From positions 288,001-352,000 of IMG/VR virus record IMGVR_UViG_3300035208_004923: 64,000 nt of DNA, one strand, 5' to 3'. The position numbers were made by a program, and so were the translations under genes. The number at the start of each line of letters is the position of its first letter. Position 1 is the first letter of the stretch. The notes under the pieces are model-generated. The model was not told the origin of the DNA. It did no database searches and saw nothing but the letters and a program-made list of their open reading frames with translations. Below, piece by piece: positions 1 through 19,467 of this stretch. Origin of the DNA: a virus (Duplodnaviria; Caudoviricetes).

Positions 1-495
1 GAATTGGGACGCCTTTTTTCGATGAATTTCAGTTATTGTATCAGCATCAACATCAATAACTTGATTTGTCATTTTGTAAAACAAATCACAAATTGCAGCC
101 ATTAATGGAACTTCCCAAAGAATTGTTCTGTACCAGTAACCGCTTATTGTTAAAATCAGATGACCTTCATCATCTTGGATAACTCCAACTTCAGATGGGT
201 CAAAACGATATACTTCAAGAAAATCAATAAATGCCATTGGCAAGAAAGGACATTTTTCAGCAAATTCCTTTTTACGTTGTTTCGACAATGTACGATTTCT
301 GAATCCGTCAATAACTCTACGAAGTTCAACGTCAAATCCTTTTGGATATACTGTGTTATTGCGATCATTGAAAGTGTATTTCACCTTTACATTAGGGAAA
401 CATTTCAAAACAGCCCAACACATCGTAAGTTTATACAAGTCAGTGAATAAAATTGATTCATAATTCGCTGGTTCAATAGATGGCGTGTATTTCAT
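1..495 (-). CDS. pncB: Nicotinate phosphoribosyltransferase, N-terminal part (runs off window start; absent from ORF track)
   Basis: Manual translation from ATG 495: MKYTPSIEPANYESILFTDLYKLTMCWAVLKCFPNVKVKYTFNDR...ISGYWYRTILWEVPLMAAICDLFY. TDLYKxTM and GxWxxTILWEVPL are PncB motifs; open to the window edge. Confidence 0.9.
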   Translation of the reverse strand, partial: MKYTPSIEPANYESILFTDLYKLTMCWAVLKCFPNVKVKYTFNDRNNTVYPKGFDVELRRVIDGFRNRTLSKQRKKEFAEKCPFLPMAFIDFLEVYRFDPSEVGVIQDDEGHLILTISGYWYRTILWEVPLMAAICDLFYKMTNQVIDVDADTITEIHRKKASQF

Positions 496-519
496 AATTT
501 ATTTTTTAGATTAATTTAA

Positions 520-560
520 TTAAAATCAAATATACAACATTTAATTATCAATAGCAATAG
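520..560 (-). promoter_or_regulatory. Class 1 (early, host-sigma type) promoter repeat
   Basis: Minus-strand consensus CTATTGCTATTGC-N7-ATGTTGTATATTTGATTTTAA; TATATTTG fits the Bacteroidota -7 TAnnTTTG with TTG about 20 nt upstream; precedes pncB. One of 16 copies. Confidence 0.85.
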
Positions 561-576
561 TATTTGCATTTATTTT

Positions 577-1227
577 TTATTTTTTATTTTTATAATCATT
601 AATTATTTTCCAATTATTTACAATTGCATCATTTTTAAGCATTTCATAATATACCCATTTCTTTATGTTAAGAAATTCAATTAATTTGTCACGCCCAAGA
701 ATACAGAGTTGTTCATTCGTTATTACGTTTTCAATAATGTAATATTTTTTATTTATATTTTGCAATGAAACCGCACGTTTTGCCAATATTTCGTCTGTTA
801 CATGTTTTGTGGCATCCCAAGCGTCTGCTAACGATTGTTTGTGTTCATCTGTTTTTTTAACATTTTTTAATTTATCGCGTATCTTATCTTTTGTTGATTC
901 TTTTAAATGAGTACCTAATCTTTTCAATCTTAGTTTTTCTCTAGTTTCGTCAGTAATACCTGAATATCCATCACCGCCGTACGATCTATTGTAACCAACC
1001 GTATGATTTGTTGAATCAAAAAATTTTATCCAATATTTTTCTTTTTCATTTAATTCATCAAACGACAATGCAGTATCTATAATATCTTTTACGAAATTGT
1101 GTTTTCCATATTTTCTTAAAGCATATTGTATTACAATGCCAGATCCTAAATACTTTGGATTATTATTTTTCGATTTACCTATGTAAATCTTGTTATTAAT
1201 AATGTTTGTAACTTTGTATATTATCAT
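577..1227 (-). CDS. GIY-YIG homing endonuclease (Seg-like)
   Basis: MIIYKVTNIINNKIYIGKS...YLGSG...ELNEKEKYWI...GYN; NUMOD3-like tail. Confidence 0.88.
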   Translation of the reverse strand: MIIYKVTNIINNKIYIGKSKNNNPKYLGSGIVIQYALRKYGKHNFVKDIIDTALSFDELNEKEKYWIKFFDSTNHTVGYNRSYGGDGYSGITDETREKLRLKRLGTHLKESTKDKIRDKLKNVKKTDEHKQSLADAWDATKHVTDEILAKRAVSLQNINKKYYIIENVITNEQLCILGRDKLIEFLNIKKWVYYEMLKNDAIVNNWKIINDYKNKK

Positions 1228-1240
1228 GAATACATTTATT

Positions 1241-1252
1241 TTATATATTCAT
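1241..1252 (-). promoter_or_regulatory. Class 3 (late-type) promoter motif (T)GAATATATAA(A), representative copy
   Basis: Same or near-identical motif 12-25 nt before the ATG at about 1241(-), 4762(-), 6241(-), 18101(-), 19478(-), 23901(+), 41241(-), 42016(-), 52947(+), 57018(-); several contain the T4 late consensus TATAAATA. Confidence 0.65.
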
Positions 1253-1311
1253 TCATATAAACAGATTTATATAAGTTAACCCAATTTAATCTCTCCGTCG
1301 TTTCAAAATTT

Positions 1312-1894
1312 TTAGTTTTTAATAGCTTCCCATAAATTTTGAATTAGAACAGGCAATCCTGTTATTGTAATGCCGCAAAGAATCACAAACATTGTGGTAT
1401 ATGCAGATTTATTACATATAGGATATATTCCAGACGTAGTTAATAATCCGCCAAAAATCACGAATATAACAAATGCAATTGCAAACATGAAACATATCAG
1501 TGTGAGGACATTTTTTTGTTTTTTATTCATAATTTAATTTTAAAGTTTAACAATTTTATATTTCTCCGCCTTTTTCAAAATTTCTTTTAGCTTTTATTGA
1601 AAGTTCTGTAAGTCTTTTCAATAAATCATCTTTAGGATATGATACATCATAACGTTTTCCACCTTTTTGCAATGAGAAAAAACATGGAGTATTTCCCCTA
1701 AATTGCCATTGCAATATTCCTACTCCTAAACTGTTTGCTCGATAATGATTTATACCCGTAATTGAACTTGAACACCAAACGAATCCGATATTATCTTCAT
1801 CATCGTGTGAATAAGTCATATGAAAAACTTTATTTAAGTGTTTTTCAAGAATCCTTTCAATTTGTTCCGCTGTTGCGTTTGATACTGATAACAT
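1312..1894 (-). other. Two hypothetical CDS: 1312-1530 (2 TM helices) and 1556-1894
   Basis: Tightly packed ORFs downstream of the class 1 promoter at 1916. Confidence 0.6.
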
Positions 1895-1915
1895 AATTTT
1901 TGTTTTATCAATTAA

Positions 1916-1956
1916 TTAAAATCAAATATACAACATTTTTCAAGCAATAGCAATAG
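1916..1956 (-). promoter_or_regulatory. Class 1 early promoter repeat
   Basis: ttaaaatcaaatatacaacat-N7-gcaatagcaatag on + strand. Confidence 0.85.
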
Positions 1957-2131
1957 AAATGCAAATTATTTTAAATTTTCAGCAAAAAAAGTATCATAAG
2001 AATCATAACGAATTAAATCAACAAATTTATTTTTCTTGTCAATTTTTGCATTTTGTTTTACGTTTTCGCATGGCTCTTCGTGTTCATCTTGTTTGTTATT
2101 TGCAAACAATTGAGGTACAACAATAACCATG

Positions 2132-2905
2132 TTATAAATCAGTACTTTTTGCAAATTTTATTCCTAACGATTTTGCTGCTTCCCATGTAGGGTCAGCAAT
2201 ATGTTCGAAACCTTGTACATTGCTCATGCAATCCTCAAGAATAACCAATTTTTTACGAACATCAGGATATTCAAAAAGTTGTTTTACCGTTTGTGCAACA
2301 CAATGTGATTTTGCCTCGCCTGTGATATAAATATTATCATATTTATTTAAAGAATTGATTAATTCCAAATTCCAATCTGTACTTGGAACGCCAGGTAATG
2401 CAACTTGTGCTTTAAAAATTCCGAAGAACTCTGTCAATATATGTTTACCTTTTAGAACTGTTGTGTATTCTTTACCGGTTCTTGACCATTCATTTATTGC
2501 TTCTTGCAATTCTGGAACGATTGATGCGCCATCAGAACCTGCAATACAATGTTCTGGCCAAATCAAATGAAGGTATTCACCAGATTGTTCTAATTCTTCA
2601 AGATATGTTTCAACAGTAACTGGTGCAATTGCTGGTACGTATTTACCTGCTTTTACATCAGCAAGTGTTATTGCTGTGAATACTGCTGGCTGATTACCGT
2701 TTTCATCTGTCCAAAATGATGGGTGAAAAATCGAAAATGGCTGATGCCAATCAAGTGATACGATAATGTTATCAATTGTTTCTGTATTTTTCTTAATGAA
2801 ATTTGAAATTCTTGTAATATCTTCAGGAGCACCGTTTACAAATAAACTTCCAGTTGGACTACAAAAATCTTTTTGCGGGTCAATGACAATGATGCAATTT
2901 CTCAT
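2132..2905 (-). CDS. pncA: Nicotinamidase (isochorismatase family)
   Basis: IIVIDPQKDFC..GSL.V.GA, SLDWH, WPEHCIAGSDGA, KG, GEAKSHCV. Confidence 0.88.
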   Translation of the reverse strand: MRNCIIVIDPQKDFCSPTGSLFVNGAPEDITRISNFIKKNTETIDNIIVSLDWHQPFSIFHPSFWTDENGNQPAVFTAITLADVKAGKYVPAIAPVTVETYLEELEQSGEYLHLIWPEHCIAGSDGASIVPELQEAINEWSRTGKEYTTVLKGKHILTEFFGIFKAQVALPGVPSTDWNLELINSLNKYDNIYITGEAKSHCVAQTVKQLFEYPDVRKKLVILEDCMSNVQGFEHIADPTWEAAKSLGIKFAKSTDL

Positions 2906-2908
2906 GAT

Positions 2909-3250
2909 TTATTTTTTAAATTTATAATTGAATTTTCGTGTTTGATTTTCCATAGCTTCCCATGTATCGTAAGCAGAATCGCGTTCCTTTATTTCTGCTG
3001 CTGTTAATTCTCTAACAATAAGTTCGCCTTTTCCGTTTAATGGATTTGCGTAATAACTATATCGTCCAGGTATATCGGAAAAATTAATAAAAGCATATCC
3101 TGTATCTTTTGACGTTGAATGTTCAACGCGATACCAATCAAGTTTCGGCTCGCAAATAAAGAACATTGTTGTTCTTTTATATTTCATAAGATAACTTTTG
3201 CCAAATTCAAAAGTGTATTTATTATCGTATGATTTTAATTTTTCTGCCAT
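2909..3250 (-). CDS. Hypothetical protein
   Basis: ORF packed between NUDIX and pncA. Confidence 0.6.
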   Translation of the reverse strand: MAEKLKSYDNKYTFEFGKSYLMKYKRTTMFFICEPKLDWYRVEHSTSKDTGYAFINFSDIPGRYSYYANPLNGKGELIVRELTAAEIKERDSAYDTWEAMENQTRKFNYKFKK

Positions 3251-3729
3251 TATATTAAGTTTTTCGATTTGAACAATTCTTTTAAAGATTCAAGATAGCA
3301 CTCTTGCGATATCATAATCATTTCTTTTGCTTCATCAAGCGAAAACATTCCAGGTTTTTCAACCTCTGGAAATTCTTGAAACTTTCCAGATTTTGGTGGC
3401 CATTCCATGGAAAACATATTCGATTTAATTACACCATTAAATTTTGAACGGAATGCCCATGCATATACCAATTTTCCTGAACCGTATTTTGCGTACGGTA
3501 TTTCGTCAAATGGCCCTATTGCACGAATTCCTGTTTCTTCTTCAAATTCGCGAATTGCACATGTAAGTAAATTTTCGCCTTGTTCAACGTGGCCTTTTGG
3601 GATTCCATAACATTTTTTATGTTTGTTCCAGAAATATGGCCCGCCTGCTTTAACAAGTAAAATTTTAGGAACTCCATCAATGATGTCCCATAAAACAAGT
3701 CCTGCTGATACTTCTGTTGACTTCCCCAT
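3250..3729 (-). CDS. NUDIX hydrolase
   Basis: Nudix box GHVEQGENLLTCAIREFEEETG; MEWPPKSG..QEFPEV subfamily signature. Confidence 0.9.
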   Translation of the reverse strand: MGKSTEVSAGLVLWDIIDGVPKILLVKAGGPYFWNKHKKCYGIPKGHVEQGENLLTCAIREFEEETGIRAIGPFDEIPYAKYGSGKLVYAWAFRSKFNGVIKSNMFSMEWPPKSGKFQEFPEVEKPGMFSLDEAKEMIMISQECYLESLKELFKSKNLI

Positions 3730-9229: not shown

Positions 9230-9688
9230 TTATCGAATTAAAAAGATTGAACCAAAGTGCGTTGATTTTGTATACCCATTATTTACACCTAAATAAAAAC
9301 CACCTGTGTAATTTGATTTATCAAAATGAACTTCGGTAATTTTCCAAATATAAACATCGGATTTTAACAAAACTCCATTATACATTCCGTCCCATGATTC
9401 TGCAGGATTGCCATTAATCAATTTATCAGAATACCAAACAAGGTTTCCTTTTGAATCAAAAATGTGAATTTCGTATTCAACAAGATTTGTACCTACAGGT
9501 TTAAAAACGCGTATTCCAACGGGTGCGGATTCAGGCGCAAACGCATTAGGAACGAATAAAGTTTTCTCAACATAATCGGAATTATATGTCGAATCAATTT
9601 TTCTTAATTCTGATTCGTATGTAGAATCAAGTTGTGCACTTGCAAATAATGTTGCAAATAAAAGCCATGTTAAAATTAAGTATTTCAT
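9230..9688 (-). CDS. Signal peptide plus stand-alone T9SS type B (gliding-motility-associated, CHU_C-like) C-terminal domain
   Basis: MKYLILTWLLFATLFASAQ; LFVPNAFAP...FKPVG...IHIFDSKGNLVW...WDGMYNG...DVYIWKI...GSIFLIR. Confidence 0.82.
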   Translation of the reverse strand: MKYLILTWLLFATLFASAQLDSTYESELRKIDSTYNSDYVEKTLFVPNAFAPESAPVGIRVFKPVGTNLVEYEIHIFDSKGNLVWYSDKLINGNPAESWDGMYNGVLLKSDVYIWKITEVHFDKSNYTGGFYLGVNNGYTKSTHFGSIFLIR

Positions 9689-13008: not shown

Positions 13009-13078
13009 AAGGACTTTAAGATTTAATTAAGTTAAATAATATTTGTATATTATATACAAGTATGGTCAATAGTTTTAA

Positions 13079-13107
13079 AAATCAGGAATTTATTTTTCCT
13101 GATTTTC
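13079..13107 (-). terminator. Putative intrinsic terminator closing the radical SAM operon
   Basis: aaaatcaggaa-tttattt-ttcctgatttt inverted repeat followed by a T-run on the minus strand. Confidence 0.6.
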
Positions 13108-13224
13108 GATAATAATACTTAATTGACCGCAAGCAGCACCATTTTTAATTTCTGCTTGTGTAGCAACAGCGATTGCAAAGTCAAACCCTGCGTTTTCCAA
13201 TTGTTTTTTGATGTTTTCGTTCAT
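13090..13224 (-). CDS. 44-aa peptide matching the RlmN/Cfr C-terminal catalytic-Cys segment (absent from ORF track)
   Basis: MNENIKKQLENAGFDFAIAVATQAEIKNGAACGQLSIIIENQEK; AACGQL is the RlmN Cys355 motif; own ATG after an A-rich leader. Confidence 0.8.
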   Translation of the reverse strand: MNENIKKQLENAGFDFAIAVATQAEIKNGAACGQLSIIIENQEK

Positions 13225-13253
13225 GATTTCTAATTTTTATTTGTGAATATTAA

Positions 13254-14141
13254 TTAATAGATTACTTTTCCGTTAAATCCTTCTCTAAGATTTGCGCCAT
13301 CAAAGACAAGTAGATTTGTTGAACAACTAGGTTTTATTGCACACCTAGAATATGTTTGTACTGCATCATAGTTTGTGTTTTTTGGAATGTACATATAATT
13401 GTTGCATTTGCAAATATCTTTATAATGCCATTCTTTTATATTATGCAAGTTATTGTTTGTTTCGATTATTGTGCTAAAATCAACATAATGCGATTTTGCA
13501 TATTCATTCGCTTTCATTAAAGAAACAAATCCTGTATCATGAATTCCCATAGATGCCGCAGCTTCAAGGTATTCTTGTATTTTTTCATTTGAATCAATAT
13601 GACCTTTGATTATGTTACAACTTAAATGCAACTTAAATTTGTCAGTTGTATTTTTTTGTATTCTTGTAATATCTTTATCTGTTGGTGCATTGAATCCCAA
13701 TATCGTATTATTAATATCATTATCAAAATGATGTCGGCTTAACGATATGCTATTTAGATATTTATCAAGTCCTAACGAATACAATTCATTTAAATTTAAC
13801 CCATTAGTATTCAGCACACGAAATGCCGAAGGTACTTTTTTTCTAGCAACATTAACAGCAGCAATAAGATTTCCAAGTTTCAATGTAGGTTCACCACCTG
13901 TAAATGAAATTTTGCGAATTTCGATTTTTTTTGAAACTTCGGTTATTGCATCTGTGAAAGCGCTCAAATCAAAATATGTTGCAACATCTTTAAATTCGCA
14001 GAACGGACAATTTGCATTGCATCCTCTAAATTGAACATACATGTTTACGTATGGACGTTCAACAGGACATTTAGCATATCCTTTTTGTTCGCAATAATAA
14101 TCCTTTAGTTGGATTGTTTTATCAAAAAGTTTAAATTCCAT
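13254..14141 (-). CDS. Radical SAM protein
   Basis: CNANCPFC, ISFTGGEPTL, LNTNG, ISLSRHH. Confidence 0.9.
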   Translation of the reverse strand: MEFKLFDKTIQLKDYYCEQKGYAKCPVERPYVNMYVQFRGCNANCPFCEFKDVATYFDLSAFTDAITEVSKKIEIRKISFTGGEPTLKLGNLIAAVNVARKKVPSAFRVLNTNGLNLNELYSLGLDKYLNSISLSRHHFDNDINNTILGFNAPTDKDITRIQKNTTDKFKLHLSCNIIKGHIDSNEKIQEYLEAAASMGIHDTGFVSLMKANEYAKSHYVDFSTIIETNNNLHNIKEWHYKDICKCNNYMYIPKNTNYDAVQTYSRCAIKPSCSTNLLVFDGANLREGFNGKVIY

Positions 14142-14147
14142 AGCGAT

Positions 14148-14480
14148 TTAACATCTGCTTATACTTGAACTGCTACTACGACCACAAGGATCTACCAATA
14201 CACGACGTTCAACACGGACTGGTTCTAATCTTGTTTTTAAGCTAGAAATTTCTTTTTCTAATTTATCAATTTCGCCCTTGAATCCTTGAATCAGCTGTTT
14301 CTTTGCATCAATAGCGGCTTCAATTTCTTTATCTCTTAAGAATGCATCTAATGCTTCAATCGAAATTTGTCCGGAATTAACAAAAAGACTAGTTGCGTGA
14401 TTTCTGAATTTGCTAAAATCGTTATTTTTTTCTAACCAGAATTTTAAGTATTCTGTTAAGAAAGTTTTTTCGTTTGCCAT
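14148..14480 (-). CDS. Coiled-coil protein with Cys/Ser tail (DPCGRSSSSSISRC)
   Basis: ORF between the two radical SAM genes. Confidence 0.7.
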   Translation of the reverse strand: MANEKTFLTEYLKFWLEKNNDFSKFRNHATSLFVNSGQISIEALDAFLRDKEIEAAIDAKKQLIQGFKGEIDKLEKEISSLKTRLEPVRVERRVLVDPCGRSSSSSISRC

Positions 14481-14486
14481 TTGCTT

Positions 14487-15275
14487 TTATTTTAAATTTA
14501 TACCTTCGATAACGCCAAGTCCTAAATCATTTGATTCTGATGTTTCATTCGGATTAATTGGACTTAATTTTATGAAAAACTTTTCAGTGTTAAAATGTTT
14601 TACTAATTCTGCAATATCAAAATCAGATTCATCAACCAATGTAAGATTTAACGTAGTTTTTAAATTGCTTTCAGTTCGAATTTTACCAAGTTCCGCAATT
14701 GTTAATTTATTTTTAAATGGAATCAACCAATTACGTTTTTCCTCAACAAAACTGTGTATACTTATTTGTAATGTAATATTACCTTTTATCCAAGAATAAT
14801 CGGCATCTTTAATTCCGATTGTTGATACATAATGATGAACGTTCGGATATAATTCAGTTATTTTTGCAATTGCTTCTTTTACATTTTTTATGTTTAAAAA
14901 AGGTTCGCCCATTCGTGTCCAATTGATTTTAAACTCAAATGAATCTTTCGGGTTAATACCAGGGTTTGACTCAATAATGAACTTTACTTGATTTATCATT
15001 TCATCGGCAGTCAGATTTCTGTATTTTTTCAATTTGCCTGTTGCACAAAACTTACAACGAACAGGACATCCTGACATTGTCGATACACCTATCATCCAAC
15101 GTTCAGCACGTGTGCCAAGTTCTTCAGAATCAAGACAATTTTGTTTACGTCCAATTGCATCTTTTGTGTACGATGGCAAAAATGTATCGGTTGTTTCGAT
15201 TAAATATCCATCGGATGTTCTTAATGCATATACAATACCGTTTGCGAATTCTTTCTTTTTAATAACTTCTATCAT
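14487..15275 (-). CDS. RlmN/Cfr-like radical SAM enzyme, C-terminally truncated
   Basis: IET, VSTMSGCPVRCKFCATG, RNLTADEM..QV, MGEP, VSTIG, LQISIHS; ends without AACGQL. Confidence 0.85.
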   Translation of the reverse strand: MIEVIKKKEFANGIVYALRTSDGYLIETTDTFLPSYTKDAIGRKQNCLDSEELGTRAERWMIGVSTMSGCPVRCKFCATGKLKKYRNLTADEMINQVKFIIESNPGINPKDSFEFKINWTRMGEPFLNIKNVKEAIAKITELYPNVHHYVSTIGIKDADYSWIKGNITLQISIHSFVEEKRNWLIPFKNKLTIAELGKIRTESNLKTTLNLTLVDESDFDIAELVKHFNTEKFFIKLSPINPNETSESNDLGLGVIEGINLK

Positions 15276-15316
15276 ATCAATTATTTTAATTTTATTTTAT
15301 TTTATATACAGAACAA

Positions 15317-15837
15317 TTATTTAGTTTTATATTTAGTAGGCATATTATCAGGATATCCTAATGAAGCTTTAATAGTTTCGATTATGTTGTATATTTCTTC
15401 CTTTCCTTCTTCAAGTTCTTCATTTGAAATATGTCCTTGCGCTTGTTGCAATCCAGAATGTATAATAAAAGCATTTTCTAATAGTTGAATTACATTATTA
15501 ACTTCTTGCCAAGAACGTTCGCCATTACACATATTTATTGCATTCATATGTATCAATTTTGATAACCGCATTTTTCGCATACTAAACCTGATACCATCAT
15601 TTGTCCGCAATTAGGGCATTCGATTGAATTTCTATCTTTTGGGATTTTCGATTGTTTCTCAAGTTGTTTCATAAGCCATTTCATCAAAGTTGATTCATAT
15701 TTAGGATTGCCGTGAACGAAAACTACATTATCCGATGTTTCAGTATCGAAACTTATTGACTCAATAACAGGTGCTGGTTTTGAATAATCAGTTATAAAAT
15801 GATATTCCTTTTCAAACTTTAGTTTATCGTTTTCCAT
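15317..15837 (-). other. Two hypothetical CDS (15317 to about 15548; 15553-15837 with C-terminal CxxC..CxxC Zn ribbon)
   Basis: ORF track; CPNCG...CEKCG. Confidence 0.55.
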
Positions 15838-16107: not shown

Positions 16108-17154
16108 TTATTTTTTGCTATTATCGAGAATGTTCAAAAAATCGGCACGAATCATATTTGACCATTCAGCACCCATTCTTTTTGTAAGTACTTTTTGTTC
16201 TTTTAAATCAAGTGCTTCAAATGATTCTCGTTCATCCTTTAAAAAGTCGTTCATTGTGTCTCCCATGCATTCACCCACAATTTTACCGAACATTTTATCG
16301 TTAAGTTCACCTAATTTTGAAATAACCGCATTTAAACGATTTTCATTAACATATTGCATCAATGTTTCAAGTAATTCATTGCCTGCTTCTGATAATTCGA
16401 TTGCTTCTTTTGGTTGTTTCATTGATTTTTCTCCAGATTTCTTTCCAGTGATTTCAGCATATTTTTCATTTTTGTTTTTGAAAATTACACGGTTACCTGC
16501 CCATGAACGTTTTACTTCAATTGGCTTAATAACAACACCTTCACAAACATTACCTTCAATTTCAGGTAAACCTAATCTTTTAGGAATTGTTGTTGGAAAT
16601 AAATTTGGGTATTTAAGGCATTCGTTAAAAGTTCCTTCGAATAAAGGTTCGTCCCAAAAAATACCGAATTGCTCGCAAAGTTCACCTTTTTGTGTTTCAC
16701 CTAATAAACGTCCATTTACTTTAATATCAAAACAGTAAAATTCATTAGTTGGTGAGTAAAATAAACCTTTTTGTACTGCAGTTGCATGTGGATTTCTTGG
16801 TACATCTGGATGAGGATATGTACCGCCGAAAAGTTCACCGTATACTACAAGTTCGCCAAGGTCAAATTCCATACCAAAATCTTTGATTTCTGATTTGATG
16901 AAATCCCACATAGCAATAATTTTAGGATTTTCTTTTGTTGCAACTTCTTCATAATTGAAAAAGTTTTCAGTTGCATCAATGAATCCTGTTCTTTTTGCAT
17001 ATTTCATTTTTACACCATCATACCAAAATGAAAAATTTGAATTGTGAACAAGAATATCATCGGCAAAAAAGTTATGATTATCTTCAACTTCAATATCATG
17101 TCTTTTTGATTTAATGTCAATTTTTTTAATCGACTTGATTCCAACTATTTCCAT
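16108..17154 (-). CDS. Split intein C-fragment (aa 1-38) fused to RNA ligase 2 C-extein
   Basis: MEIVGIKSIKKIDIKSKRHDIEVEDNHNFFADDILVHN|SNFSFW; ligase motifs VYGELFGG, FYCFDI, EGVVIKP, FKNKNEKYAE, YVNENRLNAVISK. Confidence 0.92.
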   Translation of the reverse strand: MEIVGIKSIKKIDIKSKRHDIEVEDNHNFFADDILVHNSNFSFWYDGVKMKYAKRTGFIDATENFFNYEEVATKENPKIIAMWDFIKSEIKDFGMEFDLGELVVYGELFGGTYPHPDVPRNPHATAVQKGLFYSPTNEFYCFDIKVNGRLLGETQKGELCEQFGIFWDEPLFEGTFNECLKYPNLFPTTIPKRLGLPEIEGNVCEGVVIKPIEVKRSWAGNRVIFKNKNEKYAEITGKKSGEKSMKQPKEAIELSEAGNELLETLMQYVNENRLNAVISKLGELNDKMFGKIVGECMGDTMNDFLKDERESFEALDLKEQKVLTKRMGAEWSNMIRADFLNILDNSKK

Positions 17155-18152: not shown

Positions 18153-18617
18153 CTAATCTATAAGAACTTTATCATTTGTTGTTAAATCTTTAACTTGTCT
18201 CCAGCAATGTAATTCGGGCAACCAAATATAATGAGACCCTGTGACTTGTATGATTTTGCCATTCGTTGTTTCAATTTCATACCAATCATTGTTATCTTCT
18301 TTAATAGAAAAATTAATAACACGTTTCCATTCAATTTCATTGGTATCAATATTCAAACTTTTGGCATGACAATCAAGTCTTTCTTCAATTATCTTTCCTA
18401 TTGCAAGCTTGCCAAATTCTAAAGTATCAACAAGTGATTCATAAGTAAGACAACCATGCACTTTTTCTGATAATCGCCAAACGCCACCTGCATTGCCTTG
18501 TTCTGTAATTCTGTCAATTTCACGACCACGATATGTGTTCTCAATTTCTGAATATTTCGTAAATTTTCCAGGAACAAATGTATGTTCATTTGTTGTGTTA
18601 ATGATTTGATCTTGCAT
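18153..18617 (-). CDS. RNA ligase 2 N-extein fused to split intein N-fragment (99 aa)
   Basis: FTKYSEIEN...WRLSEKVHG|CLTYESLVDTLEFGKLAIGKII...VTGSHYIW...DKVLID*; motif I KxHG then Cys1 at 18452; block B TxxH. Confidence 0.92.
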   Translation of the reverse strand: MQDQIINTTNEHTFVPGKFTKYSEIENTYRGREIDRITEQGNAGGVWRLSEKVHGCLTYESLVDTLEFGKLAIGKIIEERLDCHAKSLNIDTNEIEWKRVINFSIKEDNNDWYEIETTNGKIIQVTGSHYIWLPELHCWRQVKDLTTNDKVLID

Positions 18618-19467
18618 TTTTCGTAATTTTAAATTCGTAATCAATTAAATTATTTCGTTTGTTTATCATTGCGTAATTTGTTGCTTTTTCTAATAAGTTC
18701 AGTGTATTTGATGTTATTTTACCTTTATTTAATAATGAAACGATTGAAGCGTATGGCATATTATTTTGTTTCGCAAATTTTATCATTTCGCTCACACCTA
18801 AAATTTCGATAATATCGTGTGTCGGTGTAATAACATTATAAATTATCATTTGCCATTTTCTTTTATATTCTTTATATTCGTCACTTCTTTTTTTACCCGT
18901 ATTCGATTCTCCTATTTTAGCTCTATGCTCTTCTGTACTTTTGTGTCCTCTTCTAAATGTATGCAATCCTTCATTTTTTGCAAATGTTAAATTCCATTTT
19001 TCTTTTGCTGCGCTACGTTCTTCATCAGTTATTTTAGTTTGCGCTTCCTGCATTGATGCTTTTACTTTTATTACATATACAGGGTCATTCCAACGTTCTG
19101 CTGTTGCTTTGCCTATTTTTTGTTTTGTTGAATCTTTTAATACTTTTTCTTTTGCTGCTTCGGACATGTGTTGTCTATGCGAATCAGTGAAAACTAAACC
19201 TTGTGTGCCGCCTCCACCATCTGTTAGATTATATCCTATATTTGAATCCTTTGCATGCAATTCTTTTATCCAAAAAATTTCTTTTTCGTTTAGTTCATCA
19301 GTTGTATTAGCGGTATCAATAATTTCTTTTTTGAAATTCTCAATGCCATATTTTTTTATTGCTTTATTTATTAAAATGCCTGAACCAAAATAATTAGGAT
19401 TATTATGCGAATCTTGGCCAACGTAAATTTTGCCATTAATTAAATTTGTTATTTTATAGATAATCAT
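18598..19467 (-). CDS. GIY-YIG homing endonuclease
   Basis: MIIYKITNLINGKIYVGQ...YFGSG...GYNLTDGGGG; NUMOD3-like repeats. Confidence 0.88.
   Translation of the reverse strand: MIIYKITNLINGKIYVGQDSHNNPNYFGSGILINKAIKKYGIENFKKEIIDTANTTDELNEKEIFWIKELHAKDSNIGYNLTDGGGGTQGLVFTDSHRQHMSEAAKEKVLKDSTKQKIGKATAERWNDPVYVIKVKASMQEAQTKITDEERSAAKEKWNLTFAKNEGLHTFRRGHKSTEEHRAKIGESNTGKKRSDEYKEYKRKWQMIIYNVITPTHDIIEILGVSEMIKFAKQNNMPYASIVSLLNKGKITSNTLNLLEKATNYAMINKRNNLIDYEFKITKNARSNH

Follow-up and report, generated by a model that had tools for sequence, protein, structure and literature searches.

A split RlmN-like radical SAM enzyme of phages and its NAD-salvage gene context

Two cysteines within a single chain define the class A radical S-adenosylmethionine (SAM) methylases, which to our knowledge are known only as RNA enzymes. 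What, then, would a phage do with a relative in which one of these cysteines is missing and the other is encoded by a separate gene? The question is raised by an operon within 64,000 nucleotides of viral DNA (IMG/VR record IMGVR_UViG_3300035208_004923, positions 288,001 to 352,000; "the window" below is this whole stretch). The operon encodes an RlmN-like radical SAM protein (the core), a protein with two cysteines in its C-terminal tail (the Cys-tail protein), a second radical SAM enzyme and a 44-residue peptide (Table 1). The window sits on a 425-kb contig, C1, on which 53 tRNAs were called and which also encodes a Gp23-type capsid protein and proteins of the terminase family; C1 is a T4-like jumbo phage that was binned into a small cellular metagenome-assembled genome (MAG).

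RlmN (TIGR00048; Protein Data Bank (PDB) entries 3RFA, 4PL1, 5HR6/5HR7 and 6FZ6), the C2-methylase of 23S rRNA A2503 and tRNA A37, has the same fold as the core. Cfr (TIGR04432, NF000424; PDB 9P0P), the C8-methylase of 23S rRNA A2503, shares the class A scaffold, and the same Cys-methyl chemistry is expected. In these two enzymes, Cys118 of RlmN and Cys105 of Cfr act as the base that resolves the cross-link (PMC9692996; bioRxiv 10.64898/2026.02.27.707579). An earlier, sequence-only reading of the operon held that the core stops before the last strand of RlmN, that it has glycine in place of Cys118, and that the peptide carries the missing end. The four minus-strand open reading frames (ORFs) lie where that reading had placed them, and alignments with RlmN bear out all three points.

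A probable carrier cysteine on a separate peptide

The core aligns with residues 112-314 of E. coli RlmN (hhalign probability 98.8, E 1.3e-16). Gly63 falls on the Cys118 position, and the chain ends about 20 residues past the equivalent of RlmN Asn312, without the strand that bears Cys355. Like RlmN, the pair retains the CxxxCxxC motif, the SAM-binding motifs, the glutamate at position 105 and the methyl-carrier Cys loop. The cluster ligands Cys70, Cys74 and Cys77 are invariant, the radical SAM family PF04055 is matched with 37.7 bits (cut-off 29.5), and Glu27, the equivalent of the Glu105 that activates the carrier cysteine in RlmN, is at least 90% conserved. Relatives of the core number 2430 at E <= 0.001, nearly all of them 260-267 residues long; the best 120, the protein's own record excepted, are about 68-75% identical. 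Among 84 core homologues Gly63 is invariant, and the three cluster ligands are the sole invariant cysteines. The suggestion that Cys47 might substitute for Cys118 can be set aside, as its position is not conserved among homologues, and a cysteine at position 66, present in some members, is not general.

The predicted model of the core (predicted local distance difference test, pLDDT, 95) has RlmN and Cfr as its nearest folds (Foldseek E 2e-12 to 5e-9, template modelling (TM) score 0.62-0.68). It begins at the beta-extension, which holds an insertion of about 25 residues relative to RlmN; the N-terminal helical RNA-binding domain is absent, and no conserved upstream gene stands in for it across the lineages described below. 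Scores fall below the curated cut-offs for RlmN (TIGR00048, 69.3 vs 290 bits) and for Cfr (52-57 bits vs cut-offs of 530-550; 51.9 vs 550 bits for TIGR04432). In databases, the core is wrongly labelled RlmN and the peptide is often overlooked. Inteins are inserted directly after the cluster motif in several members (L093:143-1768; P0122). Another Gly118 family without Cys355 occurs in cellular genomes of the MAG's phylum (L243, L245, L246); no peptide was found within 1.5 kb downstream of these genes, which may belong to another split family or catalyse other chemistry.

The peptide aligns with RlmN residues 327-360, and its Cys32 falls on Cys355 (E 1.4e-4, probability 52). This cysteine is unchanged in 126 distinct DNA versions, in which the peptide is under purifying selection (nonsynonymous against synonymous polymorphism, pN 0.057 vs pS 0.36; pN/pS about 0.16); to judge by this selection, the peptide is probably translated. 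When core and peptide were co-folded with SAM and the cluster, the pair scored 0.84 and the best control 0.01, with a mark that 58/80 solved complexes and 2/110 mismatched pairs reach. At least 52% of contacts were shared between runs, and partner pLDDT was at least 72. The peptide strand is predicted to pair with core residues 233-237, in an interface that also takes in 25-27, 77-83 and 120-122. Docking, which the sequence-only reading had put forward as a check, is thus what co-folding predicts, although the pass may reflect likeness to solved RlmN instead of binding. Most likely, the peptide supplies the Cys355 equivalent in trans.

How general is this arrangement? Loci grouped at 80% identity gave 59 lineages, after three of an unrelated archaeal family had been set aside. 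Core and peptide are separate genes in 57 of these: 30 with the two adjacent, 25 with genes between them and two with the peptide upstream. In the remaining two, one pair is fused and one is cut off at the contig end. The peptide is a separate ORF in all of 80 viral loci. Cultured carriers include a crAss-like Bacteroides phage (Kehishuvirus tikkala) and phages of Moorella (MTATph1), Vibrio (D479), Yersinia and Pectobacterium (Arno162); on plasmids, only ordinary RlmN and Cfr were found. In-frame "fusions" of the peptide were considered as obligatory tethers and rejected as such, since an internal Met is present in most, and a ribosome-binding site is preserved at the single junction whose DNA was read.

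The 30 lineages with two adjacent ORFs in RlmN order are what would be expected of a recently broken RlmN gene, or of a single protein made by read-through or frameshifting. However, the gaps between core and peptide differ in length and frame and reach several kb with intervening genes, the peptide lies upstream in two lineages, purifying selection is strong, and the core gene of several members has been invaded by inteins. We give this explanation hardly any credence. Judged from homologues, the separate peptide ORF and the invariant glycine recur together as the sequence-only reading had anticipated; the split is real, conserved and selected, and the locus is not a pseudogene.

Loss of Cys118 with and without the split

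Residues were compared across 107 aligned relatives, 38 with Cys118 and 69 without it. At the position of RlmN Gly177, arginine is present in 53/69 of the Cys118-less enzymes and in 0/38 of the Cys118-bearing ones; rewiring of the pocket thus tracks the loss of Cys118. Twenty-six of the Cys118-less enzymes with Arg177 are single chains that retain Cys355, and about 48 more viral loci encode single-chain Thr118 enzymes that likewise retain it. In a quick tree, the Cys118-bearing enzymes all lie on one side of a branch (Shimodaira-Hasegawa-like approximate likelihood ratio test, SH-aLRT, 98), and a single-chain Gly118 protein with no Met at its junction (P0452) nests within the split clade. On this tree and these alignments, P0452 reads as a re-fused member of the split family, and the loss of Cys118 as older than the split. 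Loss of Cys118 alone, considered as the explanation of the split, is ruled out by the single-chain Cys118-less relatives.

These single-chain enzymes are uncharacterised; they include a protein of Bacteroides phage Versailles (WAK79139.1, PHROG 24834) and members of a cellular amidohydrolase-flavoprotein-radical SAM cassette. They share with the core Arg177, Gln231, Asn278, mostly Lys307 and the lack of an N-terminal domain, and they too have NAD-salvage or amidohydrolase neighbours; they differ by being one chain. Short single-chain RlmN-like enzymes that keep both cysteines and have no N-terminal domain are also found in phages (L099:2986-3945, L100, L102, L103, L104), and the Stenotrophomonas one among these lies inside a tRNA cluster and is annotated as prohibitin.

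Since Cys118 is the base that resolves the cross-link, enzymes without it are either all single-use or finish the reaction differently, and the second is the more economical view. Engineered RlmN C118A and Cfr C105A also lack the resolving cysteine and keep the carrier cysteine; unlike these RNA dead ends, the phage loss is natural and old, and it comes with a rewired pocket.

The sequence-only reading had offered two roles for the peptide, a consumed co-substrate or a methyl carrier acting in trans. If consumed, the reaction would halt at a Cys-S-CH2-substrate cross-link and each peptide would trap one target, such as an immune signal related to nicotinamide adenine dinucleotide (NAD) or ADP-ribose, a nucleotide or an RNA; the split would make the spent part cheap. 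C118A RlmN and C105A Cfr do remain cross-linked (PMC9692996; bioRxiv 10.64898/2026.02.27.707579), and the split is old and stable. The internal Met retained at in-frame joins to upstream genes, together with the ribosome-binding site at one of them, also fits such a role, as does the peptide ORF of Vibrio phage D479 (L096:3860-4084), in which the Cys motif occurs twice in tandem. However, more than one peptide copy is seen in just 1/59 lineages, and at least 26 single-chain Cys118-less representatives, along with the 48 or so viral single-chain loci, keep Cys355 within the enzyme, so that all of these would have to be suicide enzymes. In addition, P0452 has been re-fused without a junction Met, and the flavin reductase genes next to relatives are consistent with multiple turnovers. 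A consumed peptide is therefore unlikely, and the trans methyl carrier fits best of the two roles.

Gene context and a possible reaction

The gene found most often next to the split pair is a nicotinate/nicotinamide phosphoribosyltransferase (PRTase; 14/59 lineages), followed by genes of NadM-Nudix type (nine lineages) and NadE/PncA type (three lineages). An NAD-salvage gene directly abuts core or peptide in seven lineages. NadM-Nampt adjoins the core in lineages other than that of the window, and a Woesearchaeota-labelled contig (L092) has the order transporter, PncB, PncA, core, peptide, NadE, NMNAT-like. Among records of at least 140 kb, a PRTase is present in 15/22 with the split pair vs 1/10 controls that have only the second radical SAM and Cys-tail genes (p 0.006). 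In 7 of the 15 large genomes that hold both, it lies inside the fetched locus, vs 0.8 expected under random placement. Genes for NMNAT, NadE, PncB or flavin reductases directly adjoin those of single-chain relatives, and the relatives in cells come after an amidohydrolase and a TrxB-like flavoprotein.

In this phage, PncA-like and PncB genes lie 10-13 kb downstream of the operon, in a cluster with a NUDIX gene (window 1-3729, minus strand), and NadE is distant on the contig (C1:123792-124418). The pncB product scores 383.8 bits with TIGR01514 (cut-off 269.55), and the PncA-like protein matches Pfam PF00857 (E 2.5e-6) and, below the cut-off, NCBIfam PRK11609 (E 1.1e-9). The PRTase is of PncB type, not Nampt type, and C1 has four unassigned nucleotidyltransferase-fold genes. 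By these assignments, the cluster and NadE make up a deamidating NAD-salvage route, unlike NARP1-3. The split pair resembles the phage NAD reconstitution pathways NARP1, NARP2 (bioRxiv 10.1101/2024.02.11.579819) and NARP3 (PMC13464706) in that Nampt/PncB, Nmnat and Prs-like genes are often beside it; the papers on these pathways mention no radical SAM or RlmN-like component. Overall, the gene context suggests NAD salvage.

The residues that face the barrel are also altered. In the alignment, from which the pocket was read in place of coordinates, RlmN positions 172, 177, 231, 278, 307 and 344 are changed; the rewired core positions are K116, R121, Q170, K206, N210 and K236, and the peptide has alanine at the RlmN Arg344 position. 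The basic pocket formed by K116, R121, K206 and K236 suggests a small phosphorylated substrate. We favor the reading, at a rough probability of 0.35, that core and peptide form a two-subunit RlmN-type enzyme that acts not on rRNA or tRNA but on a pyridine nucleotide, by one-carbon chemistry carried on cysteine. Candidate substrates in this reading are nicotinic acid mononucleotide (NaMN), nicotinamide mononucleotide (NMN), nicotinic acid adenine dinucleotide (NaAD) or NAD, and their chemistry would need no resolving cysteine.

An RNA target, which the sequence-only reading had included, would make the pair an adenine methylase of phage tRNA A37 or host rRNA, with water or another residue replacing Cys118. 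RlmN and Cfr are indeed the top sequence and fold matches, the Glu105 and Cys355 equivalents are retained, and this phage has its many called tRNAs, with a gene for RNA ligase 2 close to the operon. Nevertheless, the RNA-binding domain is gone with no conserved stand-in gene, RlmN Arg344 is replaced and most Cfr RNA-contact positions are altered, and the recurrent neighbours are NAD-salvage genes rather than tRNA or rRNA enzymes. This makes an RNA methylase improbable. The pair thus resembles a class A methylase in scaffold and probably in first steps, but it fails three defining features: a carrier cysteine in the same chain, a resolving cysteine and an N-terminal RNA-binding domain. Unlike Cfr, nothing at the locus points to antibiotic resistance.

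For the favored two-subunit enzyme, the data give the architecture, residue pattern and gene context, and we infer each chemical step. As modelled, the peptide would complete the barrel and put Cys32 beside SAM. A first SAM would methylate Cys32 with the aid of Glu27, by analogy with RlmN, whose residues are conserved here; a second would give a 5'-deoxyadenosyl radical and, from it, a Cys-S-CH2 radical. This thiomethyl radical would add to the electron-poor pyridinium ring in a Minisci-type step, while K116, R121, K206 and K236 hold the nucleotide via phosphate and carboxylate. The acidic radical-cation adduct could then shed a proton without a Cys118 base, and the C-S bond would break. Release of the ring-methylated nucleotide would leave a peptide that is re-reduced and reused as a small subunit. 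Alkyl radicals that add to pyridinium ions do give radical cations (PMC6270771), and SbzP alkylates the NAD ring using a SAM fragment (PMC13518217). The likely use, which is speculative, would be an altered NAD that is handled poorly by host NAD-destroying defences.

Several observations weigh against this reading. Ring-methylated NAD made by a phage is undescribed. At locus level, the PRTase contrast of 14/59 vs 0/12 falls short of significance (p 0.11), and the neighbour statistics overstate the association, as related lineages are not independent of one another and phages group their auxiliary genes. No PRTase is seen in 26/50 records that have the split pair, among them most of the small gut prophages and the crAss-like tikkala, and a PRTase is present somewhere in 4/5 phages with Cys118-bearing short enzymes. 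Finally, gene adjacency gives no direction of one-carbon flow.

The flow might run the other way. The same two-subunit enzyme could strip the N-methyl group from trigonelline or 1-methylnicotinamide via the peptide cysteine, the methyl being cleared by radical oxidation to formaldehyde, and so feed PncA and PncB. Such a demethylase would explain a place in a salvage operon with a transporter, PncA/PncB and NadE (L092), as well as gut prophages that carry the pair without a PRTase of their own, and it would not require Cys118. However, a pocket with four basic residues is better matched to phosphates than to a small cation, SAM bound at that site would presumably win over the substrate as methyl donor, and no precedent was found in the papers searched. 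We consider it quite unlikely, somewhat less so than an RNA methylase. The probability that all these readings leave belongs to chemistry outside them.

Accessory genes, locus layout and implications

The order core, Cys-tail protein, second radical SAM, peptide recurs in other, distant jumbo phages. In 17 of 32 viral loci the second radical SAM lies between core and peptide, and a Cys-tail-like gene is upstream of it in 27 of the 32. The sequence-only reading had given both proteins a possible part in handling the product. However, the second radical SAM is present in 20/59 lineages and absent from about two thirds, and it also occurs in near-complete phages (86-98% complete) without the core. 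The four genes as an obligatory unit were rejected on this ground. Judged by this distribution, the two genes are an optional, separable module, which may elaborate the product or may just be carried along between two genes that have to stay together. Both accessory genes were located by alignment-based search alone; single-sequence scans for them found nothing.

The second radical SAM has extra invariant cysteines (Cys17, 175, 244 and 246). Its frequent Cys-tail partner gene would recall the dedicated precursor of a radical SAM maturase of ribosomally synthesised peptides (RiPPs), but no maturase model passes its cut-off, and the nearest folds are MoaA and viperin. In the Cys-tail protein, Cys99 and Cys110 are invariant in eight homologues and no named family was matched; it is a candidate partner or substrate of the second radical SAM. 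In other lineages, the space between core and peptide is often filled by a different, third radical SAM family together with a short methyltransferase-like gene (L077:5771-6959, L212:2491-4376); in about 16 protein clusters the methyltransferase-like gene and the peptide share a reading frame.

The promoter and terminator that had been noted at the ends of the operon were both found as sequence signals. The putative promoter motif has 70 copies on C1, and an ORF start follows 50/70 of them vs 22% of random sites. The hairpin has 12 bp, ends in a U-run and folds with -16.4 kcal/mol (z -5.4; 0/200 shuffles equally stable), and it is missing from the list of a simple terminator scanner.

Table 1. 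Features of the operon and of likely pathway genes in the window.
Feature	Position	Strand	Basis
Promoter-like motif TGTATATAA heading the operon (putative)	15302..15310	-	recurring motif on contig C1
Core subunit, RlmN-like radical SAM enzyme, 262 aa	14487..15275	-	ORF, alignment, fold
Cys-tail protein, 110 aa, helical, C-terminal two-Cys tail (accessory module)	14148..14480	-	homologue alignment
Second radical SAM enzyme, 295 aa, MoaA/viperin-like fold (accessory module)	13254..14141	-	fold search, invariant Cys
Small subunit, 44-aa peptide corresponding to the final helix and strand of RlmN and its methyl-carrier Cys loop	13090..13224	-	alignment, selection, co-fold
Terminator-like hairpin overlapping the peptide stop codon	13077..13107	-	fold energy vs shuffles
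PncA-like nicotinamidase, isochorismatase fold; likely same pathway	2132..2905	-	Pfam/NCBIfam matches
5' part of pncB, nicotinate phosphoribosyltransferase; likely same pathway	1..495 (C1:287287-288495)	-	TIGR01514

Directly past the terminator, a second promoter-like copy of the same type (13050-13058, minus strand) heads a gene for a 387-aa membrane protein, which also comes after the operon in two close relatives (L105, L106). The RNA ligase 2 gene is in two parts with intein-like ends (window 16108-17154 and 18153-18644, minus strand), with an endonuclease-like ORF between them. UCA and CUA anticodons are among the tRNA calls of C1. A small protein (window 9230-9688, minus strand), made up largely of a type IX secretion C-terminal signal domain, hints at a Bacteroidota host. 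A host RlmN was sought in the assembly searched, and no ordinary RlmN was found there.

No published description of a split enzyme of this kind was found in a literature search made largely without subscription papers. New here are the comparison with single-chain relatives, the covariation of Arg177 with Cys118 loss, counts for the NAD-salvage link and an assessment of the accessory module. A large natural clade does without one class A cysteine, and in a widespread branch of phages the other is provided in trans; the reaction must therefore end in a way not yet described. The free 44-residue carrier makes methyl-Cys and cross-linked intermediates easy to isolate, and the cultured phages tikkala, MTATph1, D479 and Arno162 open the split pair to direct tests. 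The NAD-salvage link gives a short list of substrates and a possible new form of counter-defence in the fight between phage and host over NAD. Tentatively, phages may build or covalently trap an altered NAD-type molecule with a radical SAM enzyme in two pieces, perhaps aided by accessory radical SAM and methyltransferase genes. The outcome may be an orthogonal methyl-NAD out of reach of defence NADases; alternatively, an immune signal may be removed as a peptide-nucleotide adduct.

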